From Acidobacteriota bacterium (GTDB lineage: Bacteria; Acidobacteriota; Thermoanaerobaculia; Thermoanaerobaculales; Sulfomarinibacteraceae), in NCBI GenBank assembly GCA_024641545.1, contig JAHECW010000003.1, positions 1,951-65,950 of the forward strand: 64,000 nucleotides of DNA. The letters run 5' to 3'. Below, one piece after another: positions 1-31,254 of the stretch. Under the pieces are notes generated by a model, which did no database searches, was not told the DNA's origin, and saw only the letters and a list, made by a program, of their open reading frames with translations. A program made the position numbers and the translations under genes. The number at the start of each line of letters is the position of its first letter. Position 1 is the first letter of the stretch.

Positions 1-206
1 GGGTCGTCGGCGCCGCGGCCGCCCTCGGCAGTCGATCGCAGGGTCGCGAGCACCGGCAGCGGGCAGGCCGAAACCGCGGCGCGAATGTCGATTTGGGGAA
101 AAAGGTCAAGGCGGAGCTCGATGACCGCGGCCCCCTCGGGGGGAGTGGCGAGAGCGGCGAAAGGGTCTTCGGATACCTCGGGAGTCAGTGAGACGATCCA
201 ATCCAT
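1..206 (-). CDS. aroD: 3-dehydroquinate dehydratase type I, N-terminal fragment (gene continues past window start)
   Basis: Own translation of the minus strand from ATG at 206-204: MDWIVSLTPEVSEDPFAALATPPEGAAVIELRLDLFPQIDIRAAVSACPLPVLATLRSTAEGGRGADD. ELRLDLF and PLPVLxTLRSxAEGG resemble the AroD type I N-terminus. Absent from the ORF track because no stop lies inside the window. Confidence 0.5.
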   Translation of the reverse strand, partial: MDWIVSLTPEVSEDPFAALATPPEGAAVIELRLDLFPQIDIRAAVSACPLPVLATLRSTAEGGRGADD

Positions 207-275
207 GAAGGCAGATTACCACCTGTCTGTATTCCCGTGTCAGGGCGGACGGTGCGGGTCCACGGCCTTCCCTTC

Positions 276-330
276 ATGTCACCCTGAGCACCGCCGCACC
301 GAGAGGCGGTGCCTTGTCATGGAATGACGG
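276..330 (-). repeat. 55-nt conserved upstream motif, copy 1 (copy 2 at 20122-20178)
   Basis: Minus-strand reading CCGTCATTCCATGACAAGGCACCGCCTCTCGGTGCGGCGGTGCTCAGGGTGACAT. It shares CATTCCA.G....GGC...G......G..GCGG.GGTGCTCAGG.TGACA with the second copy. Both lie 30-125 nt upstream of a minus-strand start codon. Confidence 0.5.
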
Positions 331-333
331 GGC

Positions 334-361
334 AAAAAAGATGGCTCCCGGGGGAGGAGCC
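334..361 (-). terminator. Rho-independent terminator (minus strand)
   Basis: Minus-strand reading GGCTCC-TCCCCCG-GGAGCC followed by ATCTTTTTTG. This is the only canonical hairpin plus U-tract I found in the window. It lies downstream of gcdH and its repeat tail. Confidence 0.6.
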
Positions 362-520
362 AGATGAAGGAGGAGCTCGATGAAGGGTCGATCGGGATAA
401 GTTGGCTTATCTCCTGACACCCTCAGCTCAGGTAGGTTGTACGCACGAAACCGGGATTCGGTTTCAATTTCTTTTCTCTCAATATAGGTTCCGAGATCGG
501 TTTTGGCATCCCTTTGGTGA

Positions 521-720
521 AGAAATGAGGAGGCGAGGAGGTCAGCGCTCGCTTCGCTCGCTGTGAGGAGGTCAGCGCTCGCTTCGCTCGCTGTGAGAAG
601 GTCAGCGCTCGCTACGCTCGCTGTGAGGAGGTGCACTGCATGAGTGCACGGGAGGCCTTCAAGTTCTGTAGCAGGCCCACCTTCTAACTTCCTCACCTTC
701 TAACTTCCTGACCACCCTCC
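521..720 (+). repeat. Composite repeat (E1 family) copy A: 3 tandem 30-nt units + palindromic core + 8-nt pyrimidine words
   Basis: Units GAGGAGGTCAGCGCTCGCTTCGCTCGCTGT at 535-564, 565-594 and 595-624. Palindrome GTGCACT-GCATG-AGTGCAC at 631-649. Words CCTTCTAA/CTTCCTCA at 681-720. The core 625-712 matches the reverse complement of 6500-6608 (about 60 of 63 nt in the best stretch). Confidence 0.85.
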
Positions 721-723
721 GGC

Positions 724-1905
724 TCAGCCGGCGGGAGGCTCGAAGGCCGGGATTCCCGTGAGGTAGTTGCCGAGAACCAGGGTGTGAATATCGTGCGTTC
801 CCTCATAGGTGTAGACGGTCTCGATGTTCATCAGGTGGCGCATGATGGGGTACTCGTTGACGATGCCGTTGGCGCCGTGGATCTCCCGCGCGGTCTTGGC
901 GCACTCACGCGCCACGGCGACATTGTTGCGTTTCGCCAACGACACCGCCTCGTGGCGAAGGCTGCCGGCGTCTTTCATCCGCCCGAGTTGGAGCGCGACC
1001 AGCTGTCCCTTGACGATCTCGGAGTACATCTCGGCGAGCTTGACCTGGGTGATCTGGTGGGCGGCGATGGGCCTGCCGCTGAATTGAATTCGGGTCGAGG
1101 CGTAGTCGAGGGCCGCGGAGAAGGTCGCCATGGCCGAACCGAGGGCGCCCCAGGCGATCCCGTAACGGGCCTGATTGAGGCACATGAGCGCGTTCTTGAG
1201 CCCGGTTGTTCCCGGGAGCAGGTTCTCGGCCGGGATCCGGCAGTCCGAGAACGCGAGCTGCGAGGTCACCGAGACCCGGAGCGAGTATTTGCCCTTGTGA
1301 TCGATGGTTTCGAAGCCCTCGGTGCCTCTCTCGACGAGAAAGCCGCGCACGCCGTCGTCGGTGCGCGCCCAAACAACCGCGACATCGGCGATGCTGCCGT
1401 TGGTGATCCACGCCTTCGCGCCGTTGAGAATCCAGGAGTCGCCGTCGCGGACGGCGCGGGTCCGCATCCCACCGGGGTTGGAGCCGAAGTCGGGCTCGGT
1501 GAGGCCGAAACAGCCGATGGCCGTCCCGGCGCCGAGGGCGGGGATCCAGCGCTGCTTCTGTTCCTCCGAGCCCCACTTCAGGATCGGGAACATGACCAGC
1601 GAGGTCTGGACCGAAACAAAGGAACGCAGCCCGGAGTCGCCGGCCTCGAGCTCCTGGTTGATGAGCCCGTAGGCGATGGAGTTGAGCCCCGGTAGATCGT
1701 ACTCGCCGTAGGGCGCACCGAGGAGGCCGAGCTCGGCCATCTCGGGGACGAGCTCGGTGGGGAAGCGGCAGTCCCAGGCCCAGTCTTCGATGCCCGGCAG
1801 CACGCGCTCCCGAACCCACCGGCGCACCGAGTCGCGCACCATGCGCTCGTCATCGGTCAGCAGCGTGTCGATCTGGTAGAGGTCGAAGTCGGAATAATCA
1901 CGCAT
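724..1905 (-). CDS. gcdH: glutaryl-CoA dehydrogenase (acyl-CoA dehydrogenase family)
   Basis: Collinear with GCDH/ACAD proteins: GCFGLTEPDFGSNPGGM, AWITNG, RNNVAVARECAKTAREIHGANGI, YEGTHDIHTLVLG. Start taken at MRDYSDF (1905) because 1907-1934 is one arm of an inverted repeat; the track start at 1932 is possible. Confidence 0.9.
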   Translation of the reverse strand: MRDYSDFDLYQIDTLLTDDERMVRDSVRRWVRERVLPGIEDWAWDCRFPTELVPEMAELGLLGAPYGEYDLPGLNSIAYGLINQELEAGDSGLRSFVSVQTSLVMFPILKWGSEEQKQRWIPALGAGTAIGCFGLTEPDFGSNPGGMRTRAVRDGDSWILNGAKAWITNGSIADVAVVWARTDDGVRGFLVERGTEGFETIDHKGKYSLRVSVTSQLAFSDCRIPAENLLPGTTGLKNALMCLNQARYGIAWGALGSAMATFSAALDYASTRIQFSGRPIAAHQITQVKLAEMYSEIVKGQLVALQLGRMKDAGSLRHEAVSLAKRNNVAVARECAKTAREIHGANGIVNEYPIMRHLMNIETVYTYEGTHDIHTLVLGNYLTGIPAFEPPAG

Positions 1906-1906
1906 G

Positions 1907-2006
1907 AGGTGCCACCCTTCGCATCGTTGCATTGTGCCTCATCGGTAACCACATTTGTCAAAGCGGTATTGCGTCACTCAATGCGACAATGCGAAGGGTG
2001 GCACCT
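1907..2006. promoter_or_regulatory. 28-bp inverted repeat in the gcdH/2033 divergent intergenic region (candidate operator or RNA hairpin)
   Basis: 1907-1934 AGGTGCCACCCTTCGCATCGTTGCATTG versus the reverse complement of 1979-2006 AGGTGCCACCCTTCGCATTGTCGCATTG (26/28 match), with a 44-nt spacer. The right arm contains tandem CAATGCGA x2. Confidence 0.45.
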
Positions 2007-2032
2007 TGGGGAAATCGCGGTACCATCGGTCC

Positions 2033-3166
2033 ATGAAGATCCCTTGGTCGACGATCGCCGGGTGGGTCCACGCAGTGCTGCTGGCGGCGCTGCCGTGGTG
2101 GGCCTGGTGGGATCCCCGGTGGGTCCCCTTGATGGTGGGCGGTGCGGTCCTGGTGCACCAGCGGGCGCGGCGCCATCAGGCAACCGAGCCGTGGTCCAGC
2201 GCGCTGGTTTTCGTCTCTGCCGCGGCCTTCGTTCTTCTGACCTCCGGCTGGCGCGGTCCAGTGGGGTTGTGGATTCTCCTCGGTCTCGCGGTCGCGGCCA
2301 CGGCCCGTTTCGTCTCGTTCAACGACGGCGGCCGGCCCGACGCCGCGGACATCGTCGCGGTGGTGGCCTGGGCGGTGCCCTTTGCCGCCGATCCCGGGCT
2401 GCTCGAGACCGCCGCCGGCGGCTGGTTGGCGCCCGCGGTGCTGCTGGCGGCGGCGCGCCGTCTCGGATCGGTGCTCGCGTCGGGCGGTGCCGCCGGGAGA
2501 TCCCCGATCGGTCCGCCGACGCGCGAGGTCCGCGGCACCCTGAGCCTGCGCGGGGTGGTCGCGACCGCGGCCGGTCTGCCGGAGACGGTGCCCCTGCACC
2601 TCGATCTCCGGGCCGGTGAGTCGCTGGCGGTGATCTGTCGGGACCGGGTCGCGGGGCAGGCGCTCGCGGATGTCCTCGCCGGCCGGTCGAGGCCGCACGG
2701 CGGGGAAGTTCTCATTGATGGCAGCCCCGTCGGCCCCGCCGACCGCCTGATCGCGGTGATCGGCCCGGGCGAGCCGCTGGTCGCGGGCGGTCTCGACGCC
2801 AATCTGGCCGCGCTTCGGGAAGAAGCCCCCGATCGGGCGGCCCTCGGTGCCGCCCGCGACGCGTGTGGTTTGGCCGATGTCGCGGCGGCGTTGAGCGGCC
2901 GGTCCATGACCGCCGACGGCGAGCCGCTGACGACCTATCAACGGCTCCTGGTGCTGGCCGCGAGGGTGCTTGTTTCGCACTACCGGCTGGTCGTGGTGGT
3001 CGATCCGGAACCGTGGGTCGATTCGCGACGGGGTGATCTCTGGCGCGCCGCACTGGTGCGGGCCTCGGTCGGCCGGACGTCGATCTGGATCACCGGCGAT
3101 CCCGATCTCGCCGACCGCGCCGATCACGTCCACGAGCTGGAGGGTGGGGTGCTCAGACCGTCGTAG
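2033..3166 (+). CDS. membrane protein with C-terminal degenerate ABC-ATPase-like domain
   Basis: The N-terminal ~150 aa are hydrophobic helices (MKIPWSTIAGWVHAVLLAALPWW...). The C-terminal ~220 aa follow ABC ATPase order, but Walker A reads AVICRDRVAGQ, the signature reads LTTYQ and Walker B reads VVVVDPEP. Confidence 0.65.
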   Translation: MKIPWSTIAGWVHAVLLAALPWWAWWDPRWVPLMVGGAVLVHQRARRHQATEPWSSALVFVSAAAFVLLTSGWRGPVGLWILLGLAVAATARFVSFNDGGRPDAADIVAVVAWAVPFAADPGLLETAAGGWLAPAVLLAAARRLGSVLASGGAAGRSPIGPPTREVRGTLSLRGVVATAAGLPETVPLHLDLRAGESLAVICRDRVAGQALADVLAGRSRPHGGEVLIDGSPVGPADRLIAVIGPGEPLVAGGLDANLAALREEAPDRAALGAARDACGLADVAAALSGRSMTADGEPLTTYQRLLVLAARVLVSHYRLVVVVDPEPWVDSRRGDLWRAALVRASVGRTSIWITGDPDLADRADHVHELEGGVLRPS

Positions 3167-3298
3167 GCGCCGCGTGACCAGTGTCGAACCGGAATCTGCG
3201 GGCGGGACGCCCGCATCACGGAAAAGCGGAGCAAACCTGAAGAACCCGGCTCTGCGGTAGGATGGTGGCGGACGCTCGGCGTTCCAGGGGAGGTTCGA

Positions 3299-3577
3299 AT
3301 GGGCACTTTCATGGGTGGATCGGCGCCCGCCATGGCGCGCCAGGTGTGCGACGGCTACACCCTCTTGTCGATGACCAGCCTCAAACGGCTCAGCGTCGAA
3401 CAGATGCAGCAGCTCGAGTTCGAGATGGACAAGAATCTCCGCCTCGCCCGCGGCACGCAGCCGGACCTCAACGATCAGCCGGCGCTCCAGGAACGGAATC
3501 GACGGATCTTCAGGATCGAGGGACAACTCCGGGTGCTGCGCCACACCGCGCAACAGAAGAAGATGGGCAGGCTGTAG
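3299..3577 (+). CDS. hypothetical small charged/helical protein (92 aa)
   Basis: GGGGAGG lies 8 nt upstream of the ATG and third positions are GC-rich. I recognised no family. Confidence 0.45.
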   Translation: MGTFMGGSAPAMARQVCDGYTLLSMTSLKRLSVEQMQQLEFEMDKNLRLARGTQPDLNDQPALQERNRRIFRIEGQLRVLRHTAQQKKMGRL

Positions 3578-3700
3578 CGAGCGAGCGCTCGCTTCGCTCG
3601 CTGTAAGGAAGTAAGGAAGTGAGGAGGTTCCCTACCCTTCACTCTTCATTCTTCATTTCCTAACCCGCTAACCCCTAACTTCCTCACCTCCTCACCTCCA
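3571..3700 (+). repeat. E1-family partial copy: one 30-nt-type unit + purine words + pyrimidine words
   Basis: AGCGAGCGAGCGCTCGCTTCGCTCGCTGT overlaps the TAG stop (3575-3577). It is followed by TAAGGAAG TAAGGAAG TGAGGAGG (3605-3628), then pyrimidine words ending CTTCCTCACCTCCTCACCTCC (3679-3699), which can pair with the purine words. Confidence 0.75.
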
Positions 3701-3746
3701 GCCGTCTTGACCGCCAACCTCGAGTTCCATACCCTCGGGGCCCGAA

Positions 3747-4676
3747 ATGAAACCTGCACAGATTCCCGCATGCGCCCAGGGCTGGGAAGCGCTGCGCGGC
3801 GACTCCCTGGGTTGGCTGCTCGACCCGGAGCGGCCGAATCTCCACTGGCGGGTTCTGGTCGAGCTCGTGGGCCGGCCGCCGGACAGCCCCGCGGCGCGTC
3901 GGGCCCGCAGCGGCGCCAACGCCGCCGAACCCGTGGCGAGCCTGCTCGCCGAGCTTCATCCCGATGGGCGGTGGGCGACGGCGACGCCGTTGTGGAAGCC
4001 CTGCGCGGGGCCGGGTTGGCGCCTGATCGCGGCGGTGCAGTGGGGCGCCGATCCCGAGGATCCCCGGTTGCACGCGGCGTCGAAGCGCCTGCTCGAGACC
4101 GCTCCGGGTGATGGCGGGCTGGTTCGCCCGCGCGCGGCCCACCCGGATCCCCGGCTGACCGGCCGGGCCCTCGAAACCATGGTGGCCCTGGGCTGGGAGA
4201 AGCACCCGCGGGTTCAGGAGTGGCTCGCGTGGTTCGAGGCGACCGAGGGTTGGGAGGACGACCCGGCCACGGCGGCGGCGGTGCTCGCGGCAGGTCGCGG
4301 CGGACTGCGGCCGGTGCTCGCACAAAAGGCGGTCGAAGGGCTCGGGCGGAGGCTCGCCGAATCTCGAGGCAACCACTTCACCGCTCTCGGCCACCCGAAT
4401 CTCCTGCGCACCGACGCCGCCGAGATCTTCGCCGGGTTGGCGGCCGCGGGGATCGGGTTTCGGAGCGGGTGGCGGCGGTCCCTCGTTCAACTGCAGCAGG
4501 GTCAGGATCGGACGGGGAGGTGGTCCCGCCGGTCGCCGGTTCCCCGTTCGCTCGCGGTGCCCGAACCAGATCGGCCCTCGAAGTGGATCACCCTCAAAGC
4601 CACCAAGGCCCTGCTCGCCTACGCCGTCGAAGCGGAGTTGCCGCGGTTGTTTCCGTATCCACCAAAGCGACCGTAG
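3747..4676 (+). CDS. hypothetical protein, prenyltransferase/terpene-cyclase-like alpha-alpha toroid repeats (tentative)
   Basis: 309 aa with recurrent aromatic/Gly motifs (HPDGRWA, LWKPCAGPGWRL, LGWEKHP, TEGWEDDP). The TAG stop (4674-4676) is part of a REP GTAG head. Confidence 0.6.
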   Translation: MKPAQIPACAQGWEALRGDSLGWLLDPERPNLHWRVLVELVGRPPDSPAARRARSGANAAEPVASLLAELHPDGRWATATPLWKPCAGPGWRLIAAVQWGADPEDPRLHAASKRLLETAPGDGGLVRPRAAHPDPRLTGRALETMVALGWEKHPRVQEWLAWFEATEGWEDDPATAAAVLAAGRGGLRPVLAQKAVEGLGRRLAESRGNHFTALGHPNLLRTDAAEIFAGLAAAGIGFRSGWRRSLVQLQQGQDRTGRWSRRSPVPRSLAVPEPDRPSKWITLKATKALLAYAVEAELPRLFPYPPKRP

Positions 4677-4703
4677 GTGGGGCCGGCCCCAGTTCCACCC
4701 TAC
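4673..4703 (+). repeat. REP (GTAG-headed GC palindrome), upstream of RAYT
   Basis: GTAGGTGGGGCCGGCCCCAGTTCCACCCTAC: palindrome GGGGCC/GGCCCC plus an inverted GTAGGGTGG head. Confidence 0.75.
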
Positions 4704-4726
4704 GATGTGCGTGATATTTTTGCCAT

Positions 4727-5278
4727 ATGCCCAGGTACCGCAGAGTGAAGCTCGAAGGTGGAGTTTTTTTCTTCACCGTGGTGACGTTTCGACGCCGGCC
4801 CCTTCTGACTACTGAACGCGGTTTGCGGTGCCTTCGAAAGGCCTGGCGTGAGACCGGTGGAACCCGACCATTCGAGACCGAAGCGGTGTGCATTCTCCCC
4901 GACCACCTCCACACGATCTGGTCTCTACCCGAGGGTGACTCGGACTATCCGGCGAGGTGGAGGAAGCTCAAGGGGATATTCACCCGCGAGTATCGCAGGG
5001 CTGGAGGGACGTGGGTCGCTCCCGGCTCATCGAGGGAACGAAAAGGCGAAGCCGCGGTGTGGCAGCGGCGGTATTGGGAGCATCGAATCCGCGACGTTCG
5101 AGATTTTCGCCGCCACGTCGACTACATCCACTTCAACCCGGTGAAACACGGTTACGTGACCAACCTTGTTGATTGGGAGTGGTCGAGTTTTCACGATCAT
5201 GTGAAGAAGGGGTGGATCGAACCCGATTGGGGAACAATTGAACCCGACCATGTCGGCGTTCTTGACACGGGTGAATAG
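4727..5278 (+). CDS. rayT: REP-associated tyrosine transposase (RAYT; IS200/IS605 TnpA-like Y1 transposase)
   Basis: 183 aa. HUH motif LPDHLHTIW and catalytic Tyr region RHVDYIHFNPVKHGY. Flanked by GTAG-headed REPs. Confidence 0.85.
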   Translation: MPRYRRVKLEGGVFFFTVVTFRRRPLLTTERGLRCLRKAWRETGGTRPFETEAVCILPDHLHTIWSLPEGDSDYPARWRKLKGIFTREYRRAGGTWVAPGSSRERKGEAAVWQRRYWEHRIRDVRDFRRHVDYIHFNPVKHGYVTNLVDWEWSSFHDHVKKGWIEPDWGTIEPDHVGVLDTGE

Positions 5279-5316
5279 GATGACCGGGCGACGCCGACCC
5301 CACGATCTACCGCCAC

Positions 5317-5545
5317 GTAGGGTGGGGCTGGCCCCACCTTCAGAGGCGTGCCTGCACGGGGTGTTTCCGCACGTCGGTCCGAAGCAGATATCGGGGCCGT
5401 GCGATCGGCGGGCAATGCCCTGAACCCGTCGAAAATGCTGAAGGTGGGGCCAGCCCCACCCTACGTCGAATCAGAGTCGTTCATGTACGGGGTGGTTCCG
5501 CACGTCGGTCCGAGACAGCTGAAGGTGGAGCCGGCCCCACCCTAC
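5317..5545. repeat. REP cluster (BIME-like): one forward and two inverted GTAGGGTGGGGC(T/C)GGC(C/T)CCACCTTCAG copies
   Basis: 5317-5343 forward. 5438-5464 is its exact reverse complement. 5519-5545 is inverted with 2 changes. A ~33-nt companion repeat ACGGGGTG(T/G)TTCCGCACGTCGGTCCGA..CAG occurs twice between them. Confidence 0.85.
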
Positions 5546-6471
5546 GTCGGATCGGGCGCGCCCTTCATCGTCGTGATCCTGAGGATGGACCCGACGAGCA
5601 CCAGCCCGCCGAGCCACTGCCAGGCGCCGAGTCTGGTGCCGTTGACGATGTAGTCGAGGAACACGGCGCTCAGGGGCAGGCAGAGCTCGCAGATGGTCGC
5701 CACGGTGGCCCTGACCCTGGTGAGACCCCAGTAGTAGAGGAAGATCGCGCCCGACCCGGTGGTCAGCGAGATGATGACGACCACGACCCAGCTCGCCCGG
5801 GTCACCGTGGCGAAAGGCAGCCCGACTCCGCCGGCGATCAGGTAGACCAGTGCGAGCACCGATGTCAGCCCGTAACGGGCGAAGGTGGCGGTCTTGAAAT
5901 CGACGCTGCCGAGCAGGAGCTTGCCGAAAACCGTCGCGGCGCCGAAACAGACCGCGGCCATCAGGGCGAAGAACGCGGCCGACAGAGTACGGTCGCCACC
6001 CTCGAGATCGGGCAGGGAGAAACCGAAGGTGAGGAGATAGCCGCCGGCGATCGCGGCGATCGCCCACACGACGAACCGCCCGGTCAGTCTTTCCTTGAGC
6101 AGCAGGGAGGCGAGAGAGATGGCGAAGACCGGCTGGAGCTTCTGCAGCAGGACGACGACGCTGAGCTGTTTGAAATCGACCAGAAAGAGCGCCTTGACGA
6201 TGAACATGGTGCCCATGAGCCCGCCCGCGAAGGCGACGGAGAAGAGCACCAGCCAGGTCGTGCGGTCAAAGTTGCGGAGTTTCTTCCAGCAACCGAAGAG
6301 CAGGGGCTGCATGAGGCCGAAGGGTAGGGCGTGGAGGAGAAAAACCACGAACGGCACGGCGATGCCGGACAGCCGGGGCGTGAGGACCACGCCGTCGAGG
6401 CCCCAGAGGGCGGCGGCCACGCAGATGGCGAGGGCGCCGACGGTGGTGGTGGATCGGTTCACGGCCACCAT
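5542..6471 (-). CDS. EamA/DMT family transporter
   Basis: 309 aa with about 10 TM helices in two homologous halves. The stop TAG is the GTAG head of the REP at 5519-5545. Confidence 0.8.
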   Translation of the reverse strand: MVAVNRSTTTVGALAICVAAALWGLDGVVLTPRLSGIAVPFVVFLLHALPFGLMQPLLFGCWKKLRNFDRTTWLVLFSVAFAGGLMGTMFIVKALFLVDFKQLSVVVLLQKLQPVFAISLASLLLKERLTGRFVVWAIAAIAGGYLLTFGFSLPDLEGGDRTLSAAFFALMAAVCFGAATVFGKLLLGSVDFKTATFARYGLTSVLALVYLIAGGVGLPFATVTRASWVVVVIISLTTGSGAIFLYYWGLTRVRATVATICELCLPLSAVFLDYIVNGTRLGAWQWLGGLVLVGSILRITTMKGAPDPT

Positions 6472-6496
6472 GATAGTTGAGAGTGAGAGTTTCCTT

Positions 6497-6718
6497 GGTA
6501 AGGAAGTGAGGAAGTGAGGAGGTTAGAAGGTTAGAAAGTGAGGAGGTTAGAAGGTGGGCCTGCTACAGAACTTGAACGCCTCCCGTGCACTCATGCGATG
6601 CACCTCCTCACAGCGCGCGAAGCGAGCGCTTACTTCCTGACCTCTTCACAGCGACCGGAGGGAGCGCTGACCTCCACACCTTCTCACCAGCGACCGAAGG
6701 GAGCGCTCACCTCCTACA
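6497..6718 (-). repeat. E1-family copy B (inverted relative to 521-720)
   Basis: Purine words TAAGGAAG TGAGGAAG TGAGGAGG TTAGAAGG TTAGAAAG (6499-6556). Core GGTGGGCCTGCTACAGAACTTGAACGCCTCCCGTGCACTCATGCGATGCACCTCCTC. Then three degenerate units CACAGCG..CG.AG.GAGCGCT.ACCTCC up to 6718. Confidence 0.85.
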
Positions 6719-7547
6719 GCTCCACCCCCATCGGTTTCTTCAGCGCGAAGGCGAAAACCATGGTCAGGACGAAGAAGACCACCATCCAGGCGAAGCTCCA
6801 CTCCCAACTCCAACCGAAGATCTCCATGGTCGCTTCGGGGTAGGCGATGGTGATGCGCCGGATCTGAGCGTCTCGGTCAAAGGGCGGCTCCGACGGCCAC
6901 TCGAGCTGATCCATGAATCCGGACGGCGGACGTTCGGGCGACAGACGCACGACCCGGTCGGTGACGCTCACGGTCTTGGTCGCCGTCGTGCCGCCGATGG
7001 TGAAGCCGAGCTCGTAGTCGCCGGGGGCGTCGGCGGCGAGCTCCCAGTTGAGCTCGCCGAGAGAGGGGACCCACACCGCCGGAGTCTCGAGGTGGAGGCC
7101 CTCGGGGACCTCGATGGCGAGATCAGGGCGCGGTCCGCCCGTGGTCGCCAGCTCGACCCGCAGCAGCGCGGTCTCGCCGGGCGCAAAGCCGCGAAAACCG
7201 TAGAACATGTGGAGCTGGACCATGAGCAGCACCAGCGGCGGCAGGATGAAGACCATGGGCACCAGCGCCAACCCCTGATAGCGCAGGACGTGGCCGGTGA
7301 TCTCCCACTGGGCCCTGGCGATGGCGCGGAGATCGTCGTTGAAGAGCCGGATCTCGAAGAGCGAGGCGGCGATCTTGTTCTTGACCGCGGTGATCTTGTC
7401 CTGATTCGAGGTCTTGCCGAAGACCCACAGGGCGAAGACCGACACCGGGATCGACCACACGATCACCCCGACCATGGCCGGCAACCCGCTCAGGGGCGCC
7501 TGCAGCCAGTCGATCACCGTGCCGAGCATCGCATTAAGACTCGTCAT
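6714..7547 (-). CDS. hypothetical membrane protein
   Basis: 277 aa with TM helices at the N-terminus, the middle and the extreme C-terminus, and a central soluble segment. It lies 17 nt downstream of the 7564-7758 ORF on the same strand. No family recognised. Confidence 0.65.
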   Translation of the reverse strand: MTSLNAMLGTVIDWLQAPLSGLPAMVGVIVWSIPVSVFALWVFGKTSNQDKITAVKNKIAASLFEIRLFNDDLRAIARAQWEITGHVLRYQGLALVPMVFILPPLVLLMVQLHMFYGFRGFAPGETALLRVELATTGGPRPDLAIEVPEGLHLETPAVWVPSLGELNWELAADAPGDYELGFTIGGTTATKTVSVTDRVVRLSPERPPSGFMDQLEWPSEPPFDRDAQIRRITIAYPEATMEIFGWSWEWSFAWMVVFFVLTMVFAFALKKPMGVEL

Positions 7548-7563
7548 GGTCTGGAATCAACCC

Positions 7564-7758
7564 CTACGACATGTAGCCGAGGCCCTGGAGGCGTTTCTTG
7601 ATTTCCTCCTCGTCCCCGGCCTCCTCGAGCAGCGCGAGCTCCTTCTCGAGGGCGTGAGTGATGAACTCCTCGGGCGAGGAGTAACCGGCGATCTCGGCGA
7701 ATTTGCGAATCCGTTCGACGAGGCTCGCGTCGAGCTTGACCTTGGTGCTTCCGAACAT
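7564..7758 (-). CDS. small ribbon-helix-helix-like protein (64 aa)
   Basis: AGGAGG lies 7 nt upstream of the ATG. KVKLDASLVERIRKFAEIAGYSSPEEFITHALEKE fits a strand-helix-helix pattern. The C-terminus is EEEIKKRLQGLGYMS. Confidence 0.6.
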   Translation of the reverse strand: MFGSTKVKLDASLVERIRKFAEIAGYSSPEEFITHALEKELALLEEAGDEEEIKKRLQGLGYMS

Positions 7759-7771
7759 GTGGTGCCTCCTG

Positions 7772-7862
7772 GGGTGCCACGTTCACAATTGTTGAATTGT
7801 GCGGAAACCCCGCACCCTACGATTGTGAGCCACACAATTCAACAATTGTGAACGTGGCACCC
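7772..7862. repeat. perfect 28-30-bp inverted repeat with 31-nt spacer, carrying GTAGGGTG heads
   Basis: 7774-7801 GTGCCACGTTCACAATTGTTGAATTGTG is the exact reverse complement of 7833-7860. The reverse strand carries GTAGGGTGC at 7812-7820 and 7858-7866. Confidence 0.9.
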
Positions 7863-7868
7863 TACCGT

Positions 7869-10001
7869 TCATTTCAGTGATGCCTTGTCGAGCAGCGGCC
7901 TGCCGTCCATGTGCGCCGCCGGCCGGATCCCGAAGAGGGTGAGCACGGTGGGCGCGAGATCGACGATGTGCGGGTCCGCGGACGACACCTCGTGGTTGCA
8001 CAGGAGGATCCCGGGGACCAGCCGCGGATCGACGATGTGATCGCCGCTCCACGCCTTGACGTTGTCCTCGAAAACCTCGCCCGCGACCACCCCCGAGGCG
8101 CAGTCCCACGAGATCCGGTAGCCGTGGTTGTACCCCATGAGCAGATCGGGGGCGTTGCCCTTGTACGGCCCGCGGTAGAGGGTGTCGGTGTCGAAGGCCT
8201 CGTTGATGGCGATGTCACCGGTCTCGGTGTCCACCAGGCCCTGCAGGTTGGCGGCGATCTGCCGTTTGACCGCCTTGGCCTCTTCGCCGGGATCAACGAT
8301 GCCCCGGGCCTCGCGGCCGCGGATGTTGAGGAACATCCCGACCAGCCCGACGGCGTAGGCCTTGGTCGTCGACCAGTCCACCGACTGGAGCCAGGGCTGG
8401 GTGGGGTCGGCGCCCGGCTTGAGGTTGAGATAGCCCTCTTTCAGCAGCCAGGCGTTGAGGTTGACGCCGCGGCGGAACGAGGTGCAGCCGTGGTCCGAGA
8501 GCACGAAAAGAACGTCGTCGTCGTTGATCTTGTCGAGCGTCCTGCCGACGATGCCGTCGTTGCGGATGTACTGCCGCTCGATGGCGTCGGCGTACTCGGG
8601 GTCGTCGACCCCCGCGGCCGCCGGGTGACCCTCATCGATGTAGCGCCAGTACATGTGGTTGACGCGGTCGGTGGCGTCGAAGACCGTGACCAGCGCGCCC
8701 GACCGCAGCCGGTCGAGGGCGATGTCGAGCATCTGCTCACGCTCGCCGTCGACATCCTGGGTCTGGGTCCAGAAGGTGCCGTCGTCGGTGATTTGCTCGT
8801 TCAGGGCCCATGTATCTTCCGCCAATCCGAGGGTGGCGAAGGGGCCGATCTTCTTCTCGAGATAGCTCGAGTAGTAGGAGGGGTGCGAGATCGGCATGGC
8901 GGGCTTGCCGGGTTCGATGTTGATCGGCGACATGTAGAGCGAGACGTGCTCGCCGGTCTCGGTGAGCATGATCCGGGTGAGACCGCTGACCTTCATCCCG
9001 GGGATGACCTTGAAGTCGAGCTTGACCCAGTCGCTGAGCTCGCCGGTCCTGAGCTCGAGCCTGGTGCCGCTGATGGCGGCCGTCGCCGTCCCCGACTCCG
9101 GGTCGACATCGATGGTGAGCGGCAGCTCCATGGGCGGGTTGCCCTCGAAAAAGGAGTTCTCGGGGCCCAGCAAGGTGGCCTCGAAGCTCGTTGCCGAGCC
9201 GTTCCGGCTGAGGCTGACGCGGATCCCGCCCTCCTGGAAGGCCTCGTCCTCCGGGCGGGTCGTGAAGAGCATGAAGCTGCCCTGGGTGCCGAGGAGGTCC
9301 GGGATGCACATGGCGCCGAGCTGGGCGCCGTAGAACTTGTCGGGCGGGAAGGTGATGGGCACCCGGATGATGGTGCTCCAGATGTTGTTCTCGCCGAGGA
9401 TGGTCCACCACGGTTTGGACATCCGCAGCAGCCGGATATCGGGTTTGGCGAGCGGGATCCTCAGCTTGCCGATCTTCAGGGTTTTCTCCACCGGGCCGAT
9501 GTGGGCCGAGCTCAGGCGGGGGAGATAGGTTCGCGGGTCGCGGTCGAGGAAGTCGAAGATGTTGTGCCGGCCGGGGTTGGTTCCGGTGCTGAAGGATGAC
9601 CACGCCACCGGCGTGATCGACGGGAAGGTGGTGCGGAGCCTGCGGTAGCAGCCGCGTTCGGCGAGCCTGGAGAAGTTGGGCAGTTTGCCTTCGGCCATCA
9701 TCCGCTCGGTGATCTGTGCGTCCTGGCCGTCGAAGCCGATGAAGATCGTCCGCTTGACCAACGGTTTGGATTTGCGGCGGTGGCGAATCATCCGCCACAC
9801 GGTCCGGAAGGGCCAGGCGAGGATCGACACGCCGGCCAGAATCATGGTCACGAAGATCACGGCGAAGGAACCGAGAACCGCAAACCCCGCGCCCGGGCCG
9901 ATGTAGGCGTCGGCGGTGGCCGGCGCTCCCAACACGAGAAACACCAAGGCGGTCCCGACCCAGACCCCGGACCATCGGTGGGCGTGTGTTGTCGTCGTCA
10001 T
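7869..10001 (-). CDS. alkaline-phosphatase-superfamily enzyme, nucleotide pyrophosphatase/phosphodiesterase (NPP) type, membrane anchored
   Basis: 710 aa. N-terminal TM hairpin (YIGPGAGFAVLGSFAVIFV). FIGFDGQD...TFPSITPVAWSSFSTGTNPGRHNIFDF and VLSDHGC match NPP-family metal and nucleophile motifs. Confidence 0.8.
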   Translation of the reverse strand: MTTTTHAHRWSGVWVGTALVFLVLGAPATADAYIGPGAGFAVLGSFAVIFVTMILAGVSILAWPFRTVWRMIRHRRKSKPLVKRTIFIGFDGQDAQITERMMAEGKLPNFSRLAERGCYRRLRTTFPSITPVAWSSFSTGTNPGRHNIFDFLDRDPRTYLPRLSSAHIGPVEKTLKIGKLRIPLAKPDIRLLRMSKPWWTILGENNIWSTIIRVPITFPPDKFYGAQLGAMCIPDLLGTQGSFMLFTTRPEDEAFQEGGIRVSLSRNGSATSFEATLLGPENSFFEGNPPMELPLTIDVDPESGTATAAISGTRLELRTGELSDWVKLDFKVIPGMKVSGLTRIMLTETGEHVSLYMSPINIEPGKPAMPISHPSYYSSYLEKKIGPFATLGLAEDTWALNEQITDDGTFWTQTQDVDGEREQMLDIALDRLRSGALVTVFDATDRVNHMYWRYIDEGHPAAAGVDDPEYADAIERQYIRNDGIVGRTLDKINDDDVLFVLSDHGCTSFRRGVNLNAWLLKEGYLNLKPGADPTQPWLQSVDWSTTKAYAVGLVGMFLNIRGREARGIVDPGEEAKAVKRQIAANLQGLVDTETGDIAINEAFDTDTLYRGPYKGNAPDLLMGYNHGYRISWDCASGVVAGEVFEDNVKAWSGDHIVDPRLVPGILLCNHEVSSADPHIVDLAPTVLTLFGIRPAAHMDGRPLLDKASLK

Positions 10002-10200
10002 TCGTTACGAAGTCCTTTTTTGAAAGGCGGTTGGTCGGGTTCCCCCATCTCTCGATGCAGACAACCCTTCGGTTTCGACCGGCATTTCCCAGGGGGTGTA
10101 GTATAGGCGTCGCCGTCGGGGCGCGCAAGGGCGGCGGAGATCATCGAAGCGGCCTATCATCCTTGATTACCGGTGCTTACGGTCGCGGGAGAAACTCAGC

Positions 10201-10812
10201 ATGGGATCGATTCTCGGCAGACTGCTGCGCCGGCTCAAGTACGGTAAACCCATCGTGTTGGTGTCGGGGCTGCCGCGCTCCGGCACCTCCATGGCGATGA
10301 AGATGCTCGCGGCCGGCGGGATGGAGACCATCGTCGACAACATCCGAACCGCCGACGAGGACAACCCCAAGGGCTACTTCGAGGACGAGCGGGTCAAGAA
10401 CCTGGCCGAAATGGACGACACGAGGTGGCTCCGCGCCGCCCGCGGCAAGGTCATCAAGGTGGTCTCGTCGTTGCTCCAGTATCTGCCCGACGACAACACC
10501 TACAAGGTGATCTTCATGCGCCGCAATCTGCGCGAGGTCTTGGCGTCCCAGGCAAAGATGCTCGAGCGCCGCGGCGAAGAGAACACGGCTGACGACGACG
10601 CCATGCTCCGCATGTACGAAGCTCACCTGGACAAAATGAAGTTCCAGTTGAGATTCCGTGACTGGTTCGATGTTCTCTATCTCGATTTCGCCGACGTCGT
10701 CGCCGACCCCGAAACGGCCGCGCGGCAGATCAACGAGTTCCTCGGCGGCACGATGGATGTCGAAAAGATGGCCGTCGAGGTCGATCCGAATCTCTATCGC
10801 AATCGGGCGTAG
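10201..10812 (+). CDS. PAPS-dependent sulfotransferase family protein
   Basis: 203 aa. 5'-PSB-like loop VSGLPRSGTS and 3'-PB-like FMRRNLREVLAS. Confidence 0.7.
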   Translation: MGSILGRLLRRLKYGKPIVLVSGLPRSGTSMAMKMLAAGGMETIVDNIRTADEDNPKGYFEDERVKNLAEMDDTRWLRAARGKVIKVVSSLLQYLPDDNTYKVIFMRRNLREVLASQAKMLERRGEENTADDDAMLRMYEAHLDKMKFQLRFRDWFDVLYLDFADVVADPETAARQINEFLGGTMDVEKMAVEVDPNLYRNRA

Positions 10813-10815
10813 GCC

Positions 10816-11049
10816 CCTCGTCCGCGTCCGCGTCCGAGTCCGCCTCCGATGAGATGAGTTTCGCCAGACTGTCGCATTGATTGGTCGGTGGCTCGGCAGG
10901 AGATTCAGCCTGTTCTTTCCGCCCGAAAATCACACTGCCCGTCGTCACAATGGCTGCTGGTGAGCCGTATCCGCTCAGTGCTCGGTGTGGGCATCGCGAG
11001 CCGGTATGCTCGATTTCGGGCACGGACGCGGACGCGGACGCGGACGAGG
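10816..11049. repeat. MITE-like element: 21-bp perfect terminal inverted repeats made of hexamer (GTCCGC)n flanking ~190 bp
   Basis: 10816-10836 CCTCGTCCGCGTCCGCGTCCG is the reverse complement of 11029-11049. The element sits between convergent stops at 10812 and 11066. Confidence 0.7.
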
Positions 11050-11065
11050 ACTCGGACCGGGGCGT

Positions 11066-11551
11066 TCACTCCCACTCACCGTCGGCGATCGGCAGCCGCC
11101 GGATCGGGACGTGCTCGAAGATCAGCCTGGTCTCGATGTGGGCGACCTCGGATCTCGTCGTGAAGGCATCCATCGCGAGATCGCGGAGGTGGTCGGCATC
11201 GCGCACGGCGACGTGGACCAGGAAATCGTCGGCGCCGGCGACGTGGTAGACGGTGCGGACCTCGGTGAGCCCGAGGACGTACTCGCGGAACGAGGTCACG
11301 ACCTTGCGCGAGTGGCGCTGGAGGCGGACCGCGATCATGGCCTGGAGCCCGAACCCGAGCATGGCGAGATCGATGTCGGCGTGAAAGTCGCGGATGGCGC
11401 CCGCCTCCACCAATCGCCGAACCCGTTCCAGGCATGTCGACGGCGCCAGCCCGACGTGTTCGGCGAGATCCTTGTTCGAAATCCTCGCGTTGGTGTTCAG
11501 AACCGCCAGGATGGCGATGTCGGACGAATCCAGATCGGCGGGGTAGCGCAT
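11066..11551 (-). CDS. lrp: Lrp/AsnC family transcriptional regulator
   Basis: 161 aa. HTH ISNKDLAEHVGLAPSTCLERVRRLVEAG plus a C-terminal RAM/AsnC_trans_reg-like domain. Confidence 0.9.
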   Translation of the reverse strand: MRYPADLDSSDIAILAVLNTNARISNKDLAEHVGLAPSTCLERVRRLVEAGAIRDFHADIDLAMLGFGLQAMIAVRLQRHSRKVVTSFREYVLGLTEVRTVYHVAGADDFLVHVAVRDADHLRDLAMDAFTTRSEVAHIETRLIFEHVPIRRLPIADGEWE

Positions 11552-11556
11552 ACGTC

Positions 11557-11700
11557 AATTATGAATTATGAATGATGAATTATGAATGCACCGCAGCGCG
11601 AATACTCAATTCTCAATTCTCAATTTTGAATTGCCATCGCGGGGCTTCCGATGCGACGGTGCGATCGTGCGATGCAATTCATAATTCACAATTCATAATT
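11557..11700. repeat. AT-rich 7-nt-word hairpin element
   Basis: Left arm (AATTATG)n at 11557-11588. Right arm (AATTCAT/AATTCAC)n at 11676-11700, complementary at about 22/25. Internal arrays AATTCTC x3 and GTGCGAT x3. Confidence 0.8.
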
Positions 11701-13123
11701 TCTTGAGTTCCGGCAGATACCAACAGACCACTTTGGGTTCGGTCATCTCCTGGAGCGAGAACTTGACCCCTTCCCGGCCCAGCCCCGATCCCTTGATCCC
11801 GCCGAAGGGCATGGAGTCGAGGCGGTAATCGGTGGAGTCGTTGATCAGGACGCTGCCGGCATCGAGGCCCTGGACCAGCCGGTAGCAGATCTCGATGTCG
11901 CGGGCGAACGCGGCGGCGTGGAGACCGTAGTCGGCCGAGTTGGCGCTCGCGATGGCGTCGTCGAGTTCGTCGAAGGGATAGAGGTTGACCGTCGGACCGA
12001 AGACCTCTTCATAGTGGATGGTGGCGTCGGCCGGAACATTCTCGAGCACGGTGGGCTCGACGAGGGCCCCGCTGCGGCGCCCGCCGGCGGCGATGGTGGC
12101 GCCCTTCTCGACGGCCTCGGCGATCCAACGTTCGACGCGCTCGGCCTCGGCCTCGGTGATCATGGGACCCATGTCGGTGGCTTCATCGAGCTTGTCGCCG
12201 ATCCGATAGGCCTTGGTCCGTTCGACAAAGAGATCGCGGAAGCGGTCGTAGACGTCGCGGTGGATGTAGATTCGCTGGACGCCGATGCAGTTCTGTCCGG
12301 CGGCCCAGAAGGCGCCGGAGACGCAGGTCTCGGCGGCCCACTCGACGTCGGCGTCCCGCCACACCACGACCGGCGAGTTGGAGCCGAGCTCCATGCCGAT
12401 CTTTTTCAGTCCGGCCCTGGTGGTGATGCGCTTGCCTGCCTCGAGCCCGCCGGTGAAGCTCACCATGCGGACCCGCTCGTCGGCGACCAGGGCGTCCCCG
12501 AGGACGGCGCCGTTGCCGGTGATGGTCTGAAGGACGTCCTTCGGCAGCCCGGCCTCGAGGAAGGCCTCGGTGAGCTTGAGCGCCGACAGGGGAGTGACGG
12601 TGGCGGGCTTGAGGATCACCGAGTTGCCGCCGGCGATGGCCGGGCCGAGCTTGTGGGCGACGAGGTTGAGGGGGTCGTTGAACGGGGTGATGGCGAGGAC
12701 GACGCCGATGGGAACGCGCTCGTAGTGACCGCGCCGGTGCTCGCCGCCGGGGAAGGAGTCGAAGGGGATGGTCTCGCCGTTGAGCCGCTTGGCCTCCTCG
12801 GCGGAGATGGTCAGGGTGTTGACCGTGCGGTTGGCCTCCTTGCGCGCCTCCCTGATGGTCTTGGAGCCTTCGCGCGCGATGGTGGTGGCGAACTCCTCGA
12901 CCCGGGCGGCGACGATGGCGGCGGTCTTGAGCAGGATCCGGGAGCGCTCGTAGGTCGTCATCCGCCGCGCCGTCGCGCGCGCCGCGAAGGCCGCGGCCAT
13001 GGCGGTTTCGACATCGTCGTGGGTGGCCGAAGGAACCGTGTCGATGAGCGAGTTGTCAAAGGGGTCGCGGACGTCGATGGTCTCGGCGCGATCGACCCAC
13101 TCGCCGGCGAGGAGCATGCGCAT
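11693..13123 (-). CDS. NAD(P)-dependent aldehyde dehydrogenase family protein
   Basis: 476 aa from MRMLLAGEW. Catalytic motifs MELGSNSP and GQNCIG, plus PFGGIKGSG. The start ATG overlaps the hom stop (ATGA at 13121-13125). Confidence 0.9.
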   Translation of the reverse strand: MRMLLAGEWVDRAETIDVRDPFDNSLIDTVPSATHDDVETAMAAAFAARATARRMTTYERSRILLKTAAIVAARVEEFATTIAREGSKTIREARKEANRTVNTLTISAEEAKRLNGETIPFDSFPGGEHRRGHYERVPIGVVLAITPFNDPLNLVAHKLGPAIAGGNSVILKPATVTPLSALKLTEAFLEAGLPKDVLQTITGNGAVLGDALVADERVRMVSFTGGLEAGKRITTRAGLKKIGMELGSNSPVVVWRDADVEWAAETCVSGAFWAAGQNCIGVQRIYIHRDVYDRFRDLFVERTKAYRIGDKLDEATDMGPMITEAEAERVERWIAEAVEKGATIAAGGRRSGALVEPTVLENVPADATIHYEEVFGPTVNLYPFDELDDAIASANSADYGLHAAAFARDIEICYRLVQGLDAGSVLINDSTDYRLDSMPFGGIKGSGLGREGVKFSLQEMTEPKVVCWYLPELKKL

Positions 13124-14170: not shown

Positions 14171-14267
14171 CAACCACGAAGGCACAAAGGCACAAAGAAA
14201 TCACAAAGGAGTTGTGTTTGAAAACCCTTGGTGATCCCCTTCGTGTCTTGGTGTCTTTGTGGTTGTG
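14171..14267. repeat. 8-nt-word imperfect hairpin (CACNAAGN words)
   Basis: Left arm CAACCACGAAGGCACAAAGGCACAAAGAAATCACAAAGG. The reverse complement of the right arm reads CAACCACAAAGACACCAAGACACGAAGGGGATCACCAAGG. Mismatches recur every 4 nt. Confidence 0.8.
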
Positions 14268-15842: not shown

Positions 15843-15990
15843 CCTGCCCCTGCCCCTGCCCCTGCCGCTGCCGCTGATTGCTGTCGCTGCCGCTGCCGCT
15901 GCCCCTGCCGCTGTACCGTCTTGTCGGGAAAGGGAAAGGGAAAGGGAAAGGGAAAGGGAGAGGGAGAGGGAGAGGGGGGCGGGGAAAGAG
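15843..15990. repeat. hexamer-periodic arrays: (CCCTGC/CGCTGC)n then (GGGAAA)5(GGGAGA)3
   Basis: 15843-15914 is a pyrimidine-type array. 15926-15985 holds G3N3 tracts. It lies in the 419-bp metY/cysC divergent region. Confidence 0.85.
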
Positions 15991-17904: not shown

Positions 17905-18075
17905 CAGGCTGAGGCCCATTTTGGGGCCAACGCCCCCGCCGGCCGGGAGTCGACCACCTCCGTTAGCACTTCGCTCACTGTGGGGCCGGCGCCCCCGCCG
18001 GCCGGAGTTCATCGGCCCCGACAGCACTTCATTCATTGTGGCGCCGGCGCCCCCGCCGGCGTGAGTACCACCGAC
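17905..18075 (+). repeat. three tandem ~58-nt units, each with a CATTGTGG-headed GC hairpin (REP2 family)
   Basis: 17917-17950 CATTTTGGGGCCAACGCCCCCGCCGGCCGGGAGT. 17976-18007 CACTGTGGGGCCGGCGCCCCCGCCGGCCGGAGT. 18034-18066 CATTGTGGCGCCGGCGCCCCCGCCGGCGTGAGT. Stem GGCCGGCG/CGCCGGCC with loop CCCC. Confidence 0.85.
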
Positions 18076-19649: not shown

Positions 19650-19695
19650 CAGTGACAACCCCTGGTTTCGTGACTGGTGACTGGTGACCAGTCAC
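19650..19695. repeat. CAGTCACC-word array/palindrome
   Basis: GTGACTGGTGACTGGTGACCAGTCAC contains the perfect palindrome GTGACTGGT-G-ACCAGTCAC. The same word in the opposite orientation occurs at 31227-31254. Confidence 0.8.
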
Positions 19696-22039: not shown

Positions 22040-22215
22040 GGAGGTGAGGGGGTGAGCTCTCCCTTCGGTCGCTGGTCAGAAGGTCAGCGCTCGCGATGCT
22101 CGCTGTGAGGGGTGAGGCCTTCCTCCAATCGGCAGTGAGGAGGCCCAGAGCATCAGGCCCCCGACTCTCTGACTTTCTCACTTTCTCACTCTCGTACGTC
22201 TCACGTCTCACCCCG
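22040..22215 (+). repeat. E1-family partial copy
   Basis: GGTGAGCTCTCCCTTCGGTCGCTGGTCAGAAGGTCAGCGCTCGCGATGCTCGCTGTGAGG matches the reverse complement of units in 6604-6718. It ends in words CTTTCTCA x2 and CGTCTCAC x2. Confidence 0.7.
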
Positions 22216-31226: not shown

Positions 31227-31254
31227 CCAGTCACCAGTCACCAGTCACCAATCA
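31227..31254. repeat. (CAGTCACC)3 word array
   Basis: CCAGTCACCAGTCACCAGTCACCAATCA lies between convergent stops at 31191 and 31252. Confidence 0.8.

Follow-up and report, generated by a model that had tools for sequence, protein, structure and literature searches.

The stretch of DNA analysed here (the window, 64,000 nt of contig JAHECW010000003.1 from an Acidobacteriota bacterium, with a G+C content of 63-70%) carries two copies, A and B, of a composite repeat that we call E1. Copy A lies at the end of an acyl-CoA dehydrogenase gene, copy B lies between the gene for a 277-aa protein and an EamA transporter gene, and a gene for a REP-associated tyrosine transposase (RAYT; REP, repetitive extragenic palindrome) is situated between the two copies. 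Copies A and B are genuine members of a large and apparently undescribed family of modular, hairpin-forming repeats at gene 3' ends. Their parts are given below, where L001 denotes the closest relative, whose flanking acyl-CoA dehydrogenase protein is 95% identical and which is collinear with positions 1-11366 of the window; the other L numbers used in the text denote further related loci that were compared.

514-718, plus strand: copy A, a 205-bp insertion relative to L001, made up of a 201-bp element and a second CCCT (510-513 and 715-718)
514-534, plus strand: degenerate purine words at the outer edge of copy A, T-TGGTGAAGAA ATGAGGAG GCGAGGAG, forming an imperfect terminal inverted repeat with 691-714
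535-632, plus strand: three 30-nt units of copy A, each a 22-nt GTCAG-tagged mini-hairpin module plus one 8-nt word
631-649, plus strand: palindrome GTGCACT-GCATG-AGTGCAC, belonging to a centre found in A and B only
650-684, plus strand: core of copy A, a degenerate REP with an enlarged loop, GGGAGGCC[TTCAAGTT]CTG[TAGCA]GGCCCACC-TTC
679-714, plus strand: copy A's arm of pyrimidine words, ACCTTCTA ACTTCCTC ..., which are GTNAG words in reverse complement
6496-6718, minus strand: copy B, in opposite orientation to A
6498-6553, plus strand: purine words of copy B, five to seven in number
6553-6584, minus strand: core of copy B
6585-6603, minus strand: imperfect palindrome of copy B, GTGCATC...
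6601-6718, minus strand: three 38-nt units of copy B (22+8+8), with a tandem-repeat period of 38 and 3.2 copies in Tandem Repeats Finder (TRF)

An earlier description of this DNA (the sequence-only reading) had presented the two copies as an inverted pair, and the alignments bear this out. The arms at 593-716 and 6518-6641 form an inverted repeat of 124 nt with 88% complementarity, the best stretch spans 63 nt (A 619-681 against B 6553-6615) with exactly 3 mismatches, and the core 20-mer is identical in A and B, where 0 chance matches are expected. The three 30-nt units that had been counted in copy A are recovered by TRF (period 30, 3.3 copies, 95% matches); the 22-nt modules lie at 541-562, 571-592 and 601-622, and the accompanying 8-nt word is GTGAGGAG or GTGAGAAG. 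The pyrimidine arm of copy A has a period of 16 (2.2 copies in TRF) and forms a minus-strand GTNAG chain at 681-712. The palindrome described in copy A is present as stated, its version in copy B being imperfect, and the units are contiguous (30 = 22+8; 38 = 22+8+8) and have no spacers, so that E1 is a composite repeat and not a CRISPR array, as had been concluded before. The same reading held that the numbers of words and units differ in B and that the flanks change by gain and loss around a shared centre; in agreement with this, the end-to-end alignment of A and B is interrupted only by gaps of 9 nt and 8 nt, which are word indels, and word numbers also vary between strains (see below). The left end of copy A matches the reverse complement of its right end at 17 of 23 positions, and TGGT also opens the word end of copy B (from 6496), which in a hand alignment agrees with the right end of A in 20 of 24 positions; read by eye, TGGT begins three of the four A/B ends. 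The TAG stop codon of the gene upstream of copy B (6714-6716, minus strand) is either provided by the outer end of copy B or directly adjoins it. A and B are not an assembly duplicate, because they are 12% diverged, their flanks differ, and copy B has orthologous elements in three other genomes. Since A and B share a unique 100-nt centre in addition to the arms, the whole composite element was copied as a block, in inverted orientation.

The E1 family set comprises 55 metagenome loci, which came from a unit-pattern scan of metagenome contigs, together with the window and L001, and amounts to 69 sites in 57 loci. Throughout this set the modules begin with GTNAG and are of two types, namely words of 7-8 nt and a 22-nt module with a mini-hairpin. 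Of the steps from one GTNAG head to the next, 380 measure 8 nt, 204 measure 7 nt, 129 measure 22 nt and 52 measure 23 nt. The commonest words are GTGAGAAG and GTTAGAAG; the window holds 8 GTNAG chains, compared with 0-1 in 20 shuffles. On either strand, the left arm consists of purine-strand modules and the right arm of their reverse complements, with a centre of a few to 315 nt. Because one arm runs in direct and the other in reverse-complement order, the tags point outward and the module bodies point toward the variable centre. Two further members lie in the window:

3575-3700, plus strand: family member without the A/B centre, consisting, from the stop codon onward, of a AGCGAGCG hairpin module, GTAAGGAA words and pyrimidine words
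22040-22215, plus strand: family member directly after the stop codon of the gene at 20362-22038, with two long modules and pyrimidine words

These had been proposed as partial relatives (at 3571-3700 and 22040-22215), an assignment that is supported by matches to the unit module at 3583, 22054 and 22085 and by GTNAG chains in both. The centre of 22040-22215 is related to the A/B core (GAGGCCTTC...AGGCCC), and an orthologous copy of this element is found in metagenome locus L098. Two other family members, at L093 ~4900-5050 and L123 ~4440-4590, have a common centre of ~130 nt (…CCCAGTTTGCCAGTTCCGG…GAGACTCCCCCTCGTGA…GGCGGCAAC…), which looks structured and has no Rfam match at the gathering score.

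Within one narrow clade of uncultured (sediment) Acidobacteriota, the family is widely distributed. The acyl-CoA dehydrogenase relatives are all uncultured Acidobacteriota, labelled as Thermoanaerobaculia or Sulfomarinibacteraceae-like metagenome-assembled genomes (MAGs), and among 80 more distant relatives GTNAG chains occur in L001, L008 and L019 only. The A/B centre is private to the source genome: its exact core 20-mer has 0 matches in genome and metagenome contig collections, which do not include that genome, and the palindrome sequence at 631-649 is restricted to copies A and B within all DNA compared. That no named family matches E1 had already been suspected, and the searches agree. 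Rfam gave no match at the gathering score for the window and 10 related loci, with only chance-level hits on A and B (E >= 0.8); a plasmid blastn and a viral-contig scan gave no E1 match; and searches of the open literature gave neither a description of the family nor any account of Thermoanaerobaculia repeats.

The 22-nt module is a mini-hairpin, and this is backed by covariation. Among 34 distinct variants of the module, extracted without constraint on the inner 17 nt, the structure ......((..((...))..)). is paired in 99.3% of cells, and corresponds to two 2-bp stems around a 2x2 internal loop plus a hypervariable 3-nt loop. In the tag, all 34 variants have the same G1, T2, A4 and G5, and N can be any of the four bases. 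Compensatory changes are seen in three of the four pairs: 11:17 is G:C in 24 variants and C:G in 9, and 12:16 and 8:20 are each found as C:G, U:G and U:A. The covariation score is 0.318 against 0.126 in shuffles, with 0 of 500 shuffles reaching it, and slid controls of the structure give pairing of no more than 50%.

Comparison with the relatives shows copy A to be a recent insertion. The site is empty in L001, where GGCATCCCT is joined directly to CCGGCTCAGCCGG (also read as GGCATCCCT joined to CCGGCTCAGCCGGAGGG) in a clean junction, whereas the window carries 205 extra bases (514-718) with CCCT at both junctions; copy A is also absent from L024, L002 and L136. It sits at the foot of a 9-bp hairpin, the loop of which holds the acyl-CoA dehydrogenase stop codon, and 5 nt separate its insertion point from the -35-like hexamer of a conserved candidate small RNA. 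This candidate, at 335-474 on the minus strand (conserved block 330-513), lies between the dehydroquinase and acyl-CoA dehydrogenase genes and is 95.6% identical to L001, compared with ~82% for the neighbouring coding DNA. It has a promoter-like site at 509-481, a terminator at 362-342 plus a T-run, and two copies of CUCCUCCUUCAUC, which is complementary to a Shine-Dalgarno (SD) sequence plus AUG; it is conserved in L001, L136, L024, L002 and L004, with a few compensatory changes and no Rfam match.

Copy B is older than A in the site comparison, and its site turns over. L001, L095 and L115 carry family members with other modules and centres at this site, lacking the palindrome and core; L136, L138 and L024 carry a different hairpin family (GGGTGCCACGTTCAC...); and L003 has almost nothing. 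With the window counted, the site is taken by E1 in four genomes and by the other hairpin family in three. A TCCT 4-bp repeat at the copy B boundaries, which was picked post hoc, is not shared by the orthologues in L095 and L115. At the 3575 site, the window, L001, L136 and L139 all have family members, with almost wholly replaced module content. At the level of strains, L096, L116 and L127 contain ~4, 11 and 5 copies of a 7-nt word between flanks that are 99-100% identical, and L087 and L117 differ by two 8-nt words between flanks that are 100% identical. Elements persist for a long time at a site, while the module numbers shift fast by slippage.

Other repeats occupy comparable positions. 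A second hairpin family, with long near-perfect inverted repeats starting GGGTGCCACGTTCACAATTG, fills neighbouring intergenic sites in the window (7772-7862 and 1907-2006) and is also present at L136 ~11690-11880, L138 ~1890-1990 and L024 ~6110-6190, that is, at the copy B site in three relatives. Perfect long palindromes at L001 11385-11430 and L002 ~5820-5880 lie in intergenic DNA, at sites that in the window or in further genomes are taken by different elements; examples of such palindromes in relatives are TTTTTTTGCGGTTGCCTGC-TCC-GCAGGCAACCGCAAAAAAA and CATTCTCCGAAAACCGCCGAGGTTGGCTC.... In addition, the window has intergenic arrays of short words at 11557-11700, 14175-14261, 15844-15976, 19670-19688 and 31227-31254. 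Two of them consist of a word array, a centre and a reverse-complement array (AATTATG...CATAATT and CACAAAGG...CTTTGTG), and the remaining ones contain CTGCCG x11 beside GGGAAA x8, and GTGACTG / CCAGTCA. Distant relatives use words of their own (TTCGGAT...ATCCGAA and AATTCCT in L004; TTTCGAA in L003), and foldbacks of other 7-8-nt words analogous to E1 occur in many distant relatives and at other spots in the window. In this clade, the 3' ends of genes seem to offer a niche that many unrelated hairpins fill.

E1 itself sits just 3' of genes, often beside or in place of other hairpins. The genes on its two sides converge in 17 cases, run in tandem in 14 and diverge in 2. At 18 of 63 adjacent gene ends (~29%) the stop codon is the TGA or TAA within the first GTNAG head; it lies in the second word at ~4 gene ends and in the third word at 3, and in 26 cases a native stop is found 4-14 nt upstream. 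Orthologous copies at L081 6858-7014, L091 7456-7588 and L124 1439-1609 lie in frame inside a 1600-aa Pkinase-nSTAND1-WD40 gene, where they split the nSTAND1 match and encode ~45-55 low-complexity residues (...SERSERS...). All three are open in the host frame despite their different module content, using GTCAG heads and out-of-frame stops, and a paralogue at L081 ~832-870 has no insert. Since these copies are read through, the arrays do not stop translation by necessity.

The interval between copies A and B contains the RAYT gene and its REPs:

4672-4706, no strand assigned: canonical GTAG-tagged REP upstream of the RAYT gene
4727-5278, plus strand: RAYT gene, between A and B, a candidate mobilising enzyme
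5315-5343 (plus strand), 5438-5466 (minus strand) and 5519-5547 (minus strand): three canonical REPs downstream of RAYT, GTAG-GGTGGGGC-YG-GCCCCACC-TTCAG

The RAYT was picked up by a motif scan, after Pfam at E <= 0.001 had failed to detect it, and is identified by NCBIfam NF047646 (E=6e-54) and by PDB 4ER8, TnpA-REP (E=2e-38). The downstream REPs form inverted repeats I9 (100%) and I12 (93%), and the REPtron at 4672-5547 is complete. The RAYT is syntenic in L001, L136, L138 and L139 and stands upstream of EamA in five genomes; canonical REPs (GTAGGGTGGGCC..GGCCCACC) flank all five orthologous RAYTs. The RAYT-flanking REPs of the relatives are of the GTAGGGTGGGCC-NN-GGCCCACC type, and the stems differ by compensatory changes, being GGTGGGGC/GCCCCACC in the window and GGTGGGCC/GGCCCACC in L001, L136, L138 and L139. 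The A/B core aligns to the RAYT-flanking REP GTAGGGTGGGCC-TG-GGCCCACCTTCAG as GGGAGGCC[TTCAAGTT]CTG[TAGCA]GGCCCACCTTC. The 11-mer GGCCCACCTTC occurs 16 times in a sequence pool of 1.74 Mb, of which 9 occurrences are in REPs, 2 in E1 cores and 5 elsewhere. On this alignment, the A/B centre holds the palindrome and a degenerate copy of the local REP. The RAYT gene is 1.2 kb from copy B, no more than 4.5 kb separates it from three of the four members in the window, and true REPs or REPINs are found in the centres of other members, for example in L001 12962-13310 and L099. A second type of REP (GTGG-GGCCGGCG-CCCC-CGCCGGCC) is contained in a 58-nt unit with 2.7 tandem copies at 17917-18072 of the window; it is also found in the centres of L099 and L001 12962-13310.

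E1 is probably a non-autonomous selfish mosaic repeat of the REP, BIME (bacterial interspersed mosaic element) and MITE (miniature inverted-repeat transposable element) kind. It gains new sites rarely, persists at gene ends, changes its module numbers quickly and behaves as selfish DNA. Its arms are chained GTNAG modules, mirrored as reverse complements around a variable centre in the manner of a foldback element, and the centre of the A/B subfamily has picked up the palindrome and the degenerate local REP. A whole 201-bp element has recently been copied to a new position, the foot of the hairpin overlapping the stop codon of the acyl-CoA dehydrogenase gene, where CCCT lies on both sides. The copying may proceed via single-stranded hairpin DNA. 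The enzyme may be the RAYT, an HUH nuclease, which could recognise the REP-derived core or the tagged mini-hairpins; alternatively, another transposase that produces 4-bp target duplications may be involved. The stop codons and the large hairpins in the 3' untranslated region (UTR) may be side effects that render insertion at gene ends harmless, rather than a selected function.

Several observations weigh against the selfish-repeat reading or parts of it. In the window, L001, L136, L137, L138 and L139, the RAYT is directly flanked by canonical REPs instead of GTNAG modules, and none of the 55 metagenome loci was found to contain a RAYT. Because no RAYT is flanked by GTNAG modules, we only infer that this enzyme moves E1, and its participation is possible but not probable. 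In 1.7 Mb of related loci no gene is flanked by a pair of arms and centres reach at most 315 nt, so that no autonomous parent is seen, and a cognate autonomous insertion sequence (IS) with E1 ends was found neither in these loci nor among plasmids. The sharing of 8-mers is 0.176 between the arms of one element and 0.210 between the arms of different elements; since the arms are no more alike within an element than between elements, the giant hairpin is a statistical one only, which weakens the model of a hairpin intermediate. Finally, the 4-bp CCCT duplication and the termini derive from a single insertion event (n=1), and a family-wide conserved terminal motif is absent, the outer words being decayed.

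A more far-reaching idea, which we put forward tentatively and consider rather unlikely, is that the GTNAG modules represent a third tagged palindromic superfamily beside GTAG and CGTC, and that a RAYT-like single-strand nuclease/ligase cuts and rejoins at the tag. If this were true, 8-nt and 22-nt modules would be added and removed singly, foldback arrays would be built at stop codons, and whole arrays would occasionally be copied to hairpin-adjacent sites or, in frame, into genes. The word arrays would then be an enzymatic by-product and not plain slippage, and the lineage-specific word arrays of Thermoanaerobaculia-like genomes (TTCGGAT, AATTATG, CACAAAGG and others) would reflect the same process with other tags.

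Among the alternatives, the one that survives best does without transposition. Hairpin-prone, microsatellite-like arrays would grow in place by slippage, and would spread or become homogenised as purine-rich word arrays exchange sequence with one another, either through microhomology-mediated template switching or through gene conversion. On this view, the native GGAGGG beside a hairpin would have primed the templated insertion of copy A. We judge both the general account and this explanation of copy A to be unlikely. They draw support from word numbers that vary as in variable-number tandem repeats, from outer boundaries that are fuzzy and decaying with no family-wide termini, and from the failure to find a transposase with matching ends. 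Furthermore, both junctions of copy A lie in purine-rich, word-like sequence, in which CCCT/AGGG could be microhomology, and in the empty L003 site of copy B the native stop context is already CTGTGAGCC, a GTGAG head. However, slippage and template switching do not readily account for the block copy, in inverted orientation, of the centre and arms common to A and B, for the inverted repeats at the ends of copy A (17/23), or for the occurrence of the same modules at many unlinked loci in many genomes.

It is less likely still that E1 consists of functional RNA structures in 3' UTRs or between cistrons, which would serve as stabilisers against 3' exonucleases, as factor-independent terminators or as insulators. 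Nearly all elements lie directly after stop codons, between convergent or tandem genes, and the mini-hairpin has three stem intermediates, all of them U-G wobbles on the GTNAG strand (UG 1 + 2); both observations would suit a role as RNA. The predicted folds of A and B are also very stable, at -92 to -96 kcal/mol, but the z-scores are just -1.1 to -2.5, the minimum free energy is alike in sense and antisense (n=22, p=0.35), and the arms within an element do not covary. No terminator-like site or T-run is found in 514-718 or 6496-6718, so neither copy has the make-up of an intrinsic terminator. Relative to the upstream gene, copy A is oriented opposite to the other three members in the window; moreover, its site works without the element in four relatives, and some copies of E1 are translated. 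A selected long RNA hairpin was rejected as a candidate on account of the weak z-scores, the strand symmetry and the absence of arm matching within elements.

The sequence-only reading had proposed that the purine words act as a frame-independent stop plus SD array, which would end stray translation and reload ribosomes. The stops TAA, TGA, TGA, TAG, TAG, TGA and TAG in 6498-6553 do span all three frames, with about one per 8 nt in the purine arm of copy B, and GTGAGGAGGT holds a strong SD-like core. The statement that GGAGG or GGAAG follows each stop is correct for four of the seven, the three TAGs being followed by AAGGT/AAAGT. In the family as a whole, GGAGG is near just 53 of 747 heads (7%). 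On either strand, the purine arm is the 5' arm; therefore, the downstream gene always adjoins the pyrimidine arm and never the SD-like words, and the EamA start after copy B has no SD nearby. The purine arm of copy A, read on the minus strand, leaves one frame open, and the three orthologous in-frame copies are read through. One kernel of the idea stands, in that the first head provides the stop codon far more often than the second or third word, whereas an SD function does not, and the array as a selected device is very unlikely. That A and B are the ends of a composite transposon carrying the 5.8-kb interval with the RAYT, as the pair had been taken to bracket a unit, fits an inverted pair on either side of a transposase-like gene but is practically untenable, being refuted by L001, in which the interval is collinear and lacks only copy A (a young insertion that is missing in four relatives and has a 4-bp duplication of its own), and by the synteny of the RAYT, EamA and neighbouring genes in L136, L138 and L139.

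Small palindromic repeats are among the least understood parts of bacterial genomes, and the grammar of E1 is unusually legible, with one 5-nt tag, two module sizes and mirrored arms. Its events can be followed at three time depths, from a new insertion through a site of intermediate age to an ancient one where the modules have turned over completely, so that E1 could show how such repeats arise, move and decay. The presence of E1 beside a conserved RAYT/REP system, with a captured REP, offers a direct test of whether a RAYT mobilises composite elements. For annotation, it matters that E1 gives stop codons to ~29% of adjacent gene ends and can lie in frame in large signalling proteins; its word arrays are also strain-level length markers in sediment Acidobacteriota MAGs.

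Known repeat systems resemble E1 in different respects. In cyanobacteria, Elhai and colleagues are reported to have described in 2008 arrays of heptamers (STRR, short tandemly repeated repetitive sequences) together with small dispersed repeats of 21-27 nt, and the likeness would lie in tandem intergenic 7-nt words with nested units of ~22 nt; the phylum and the sequences differ. BOX elements are modular, with the order boxA-boxBn-boxC. Those of Streptococcus pneumoniae share with E1 the pairable terminal modules and the variable tandem internal unit, the intergenic position and the non-autonomous nature (PMC10969869). The sequences are unrelated, and E1 repeats on two levels, 8-nt words and 22-nt modules, mirrored on both arms. 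No parent IS is known for either. Rickettsia palindromic elements are likewise palindromic repeats that lie in frame in coding genes and are translated (PMC10969869), whereas E1 has one in-frame locus (three orthologues) in a mainly intergenic family, with unrelated sequence and host. With MITEs (PMC10969869), E1 has in common that it is non-coding and 200 bp long, with insertion polymorphism between relatives; the imperfect inverted repeats at the ends of copy A and the 4-bp duplication at this single datable insertion may be MITE-like. E1 differs from MITEs in its hypervariable tandem-word arms, and in the absence of conserved termini across the family, and no cognate IS was found in the 1.7 Mb of related loci or among plasmids.

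GTAG-tagged REPs have a terminal unpaired tag of the GTAG type (with GYAG, GTRG and similar variants) and a palindromic body (20-40 bp) whose short-looped stem measures 6-13 bp. They lie mostly downstream of open reading frames, where the neighbouring genes are unidirectional or convergent (Di Nocera et al. 2013, PMC3733652). The position of E1 is the same (convergent 17, tandem 14, divergent 2), with the stop codon within the first module or a few nt before it. The tag of E1 is the 5-nt GTNAG, one base longer than any listed variant, its stem is 2+2 bp with an internal loop, and its units, joined head to tail with 7-8-nt words, make up long arms. REPs, BIMEs and REPtrons (PMC3733652), as well as REPINs (Bertels & Rainey 2011, PMC3116915), are like E1 in consisting of short tagged hairpins downstream of genes, in the outward tags (HH arrangement) and clusters, in stems that covary and tolerate G-T pairs, and in the nearby RAYT with flanking REPs, the E1 core itself having a REP-derived segment. 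In contrast to a REPtron, whose repeats flank the cognate RAYT gene, GTNAG modules flank no RAYT examined, and in contrast to a REPIN (two inverted REPs in one hairpin), the A/B core has a single degenerate REP, a true REPIN lying in the centre of another member, L001 12962-13310. On balance, the nearest known kinds are REP/BIME clusters, BOX elements and MITEs.

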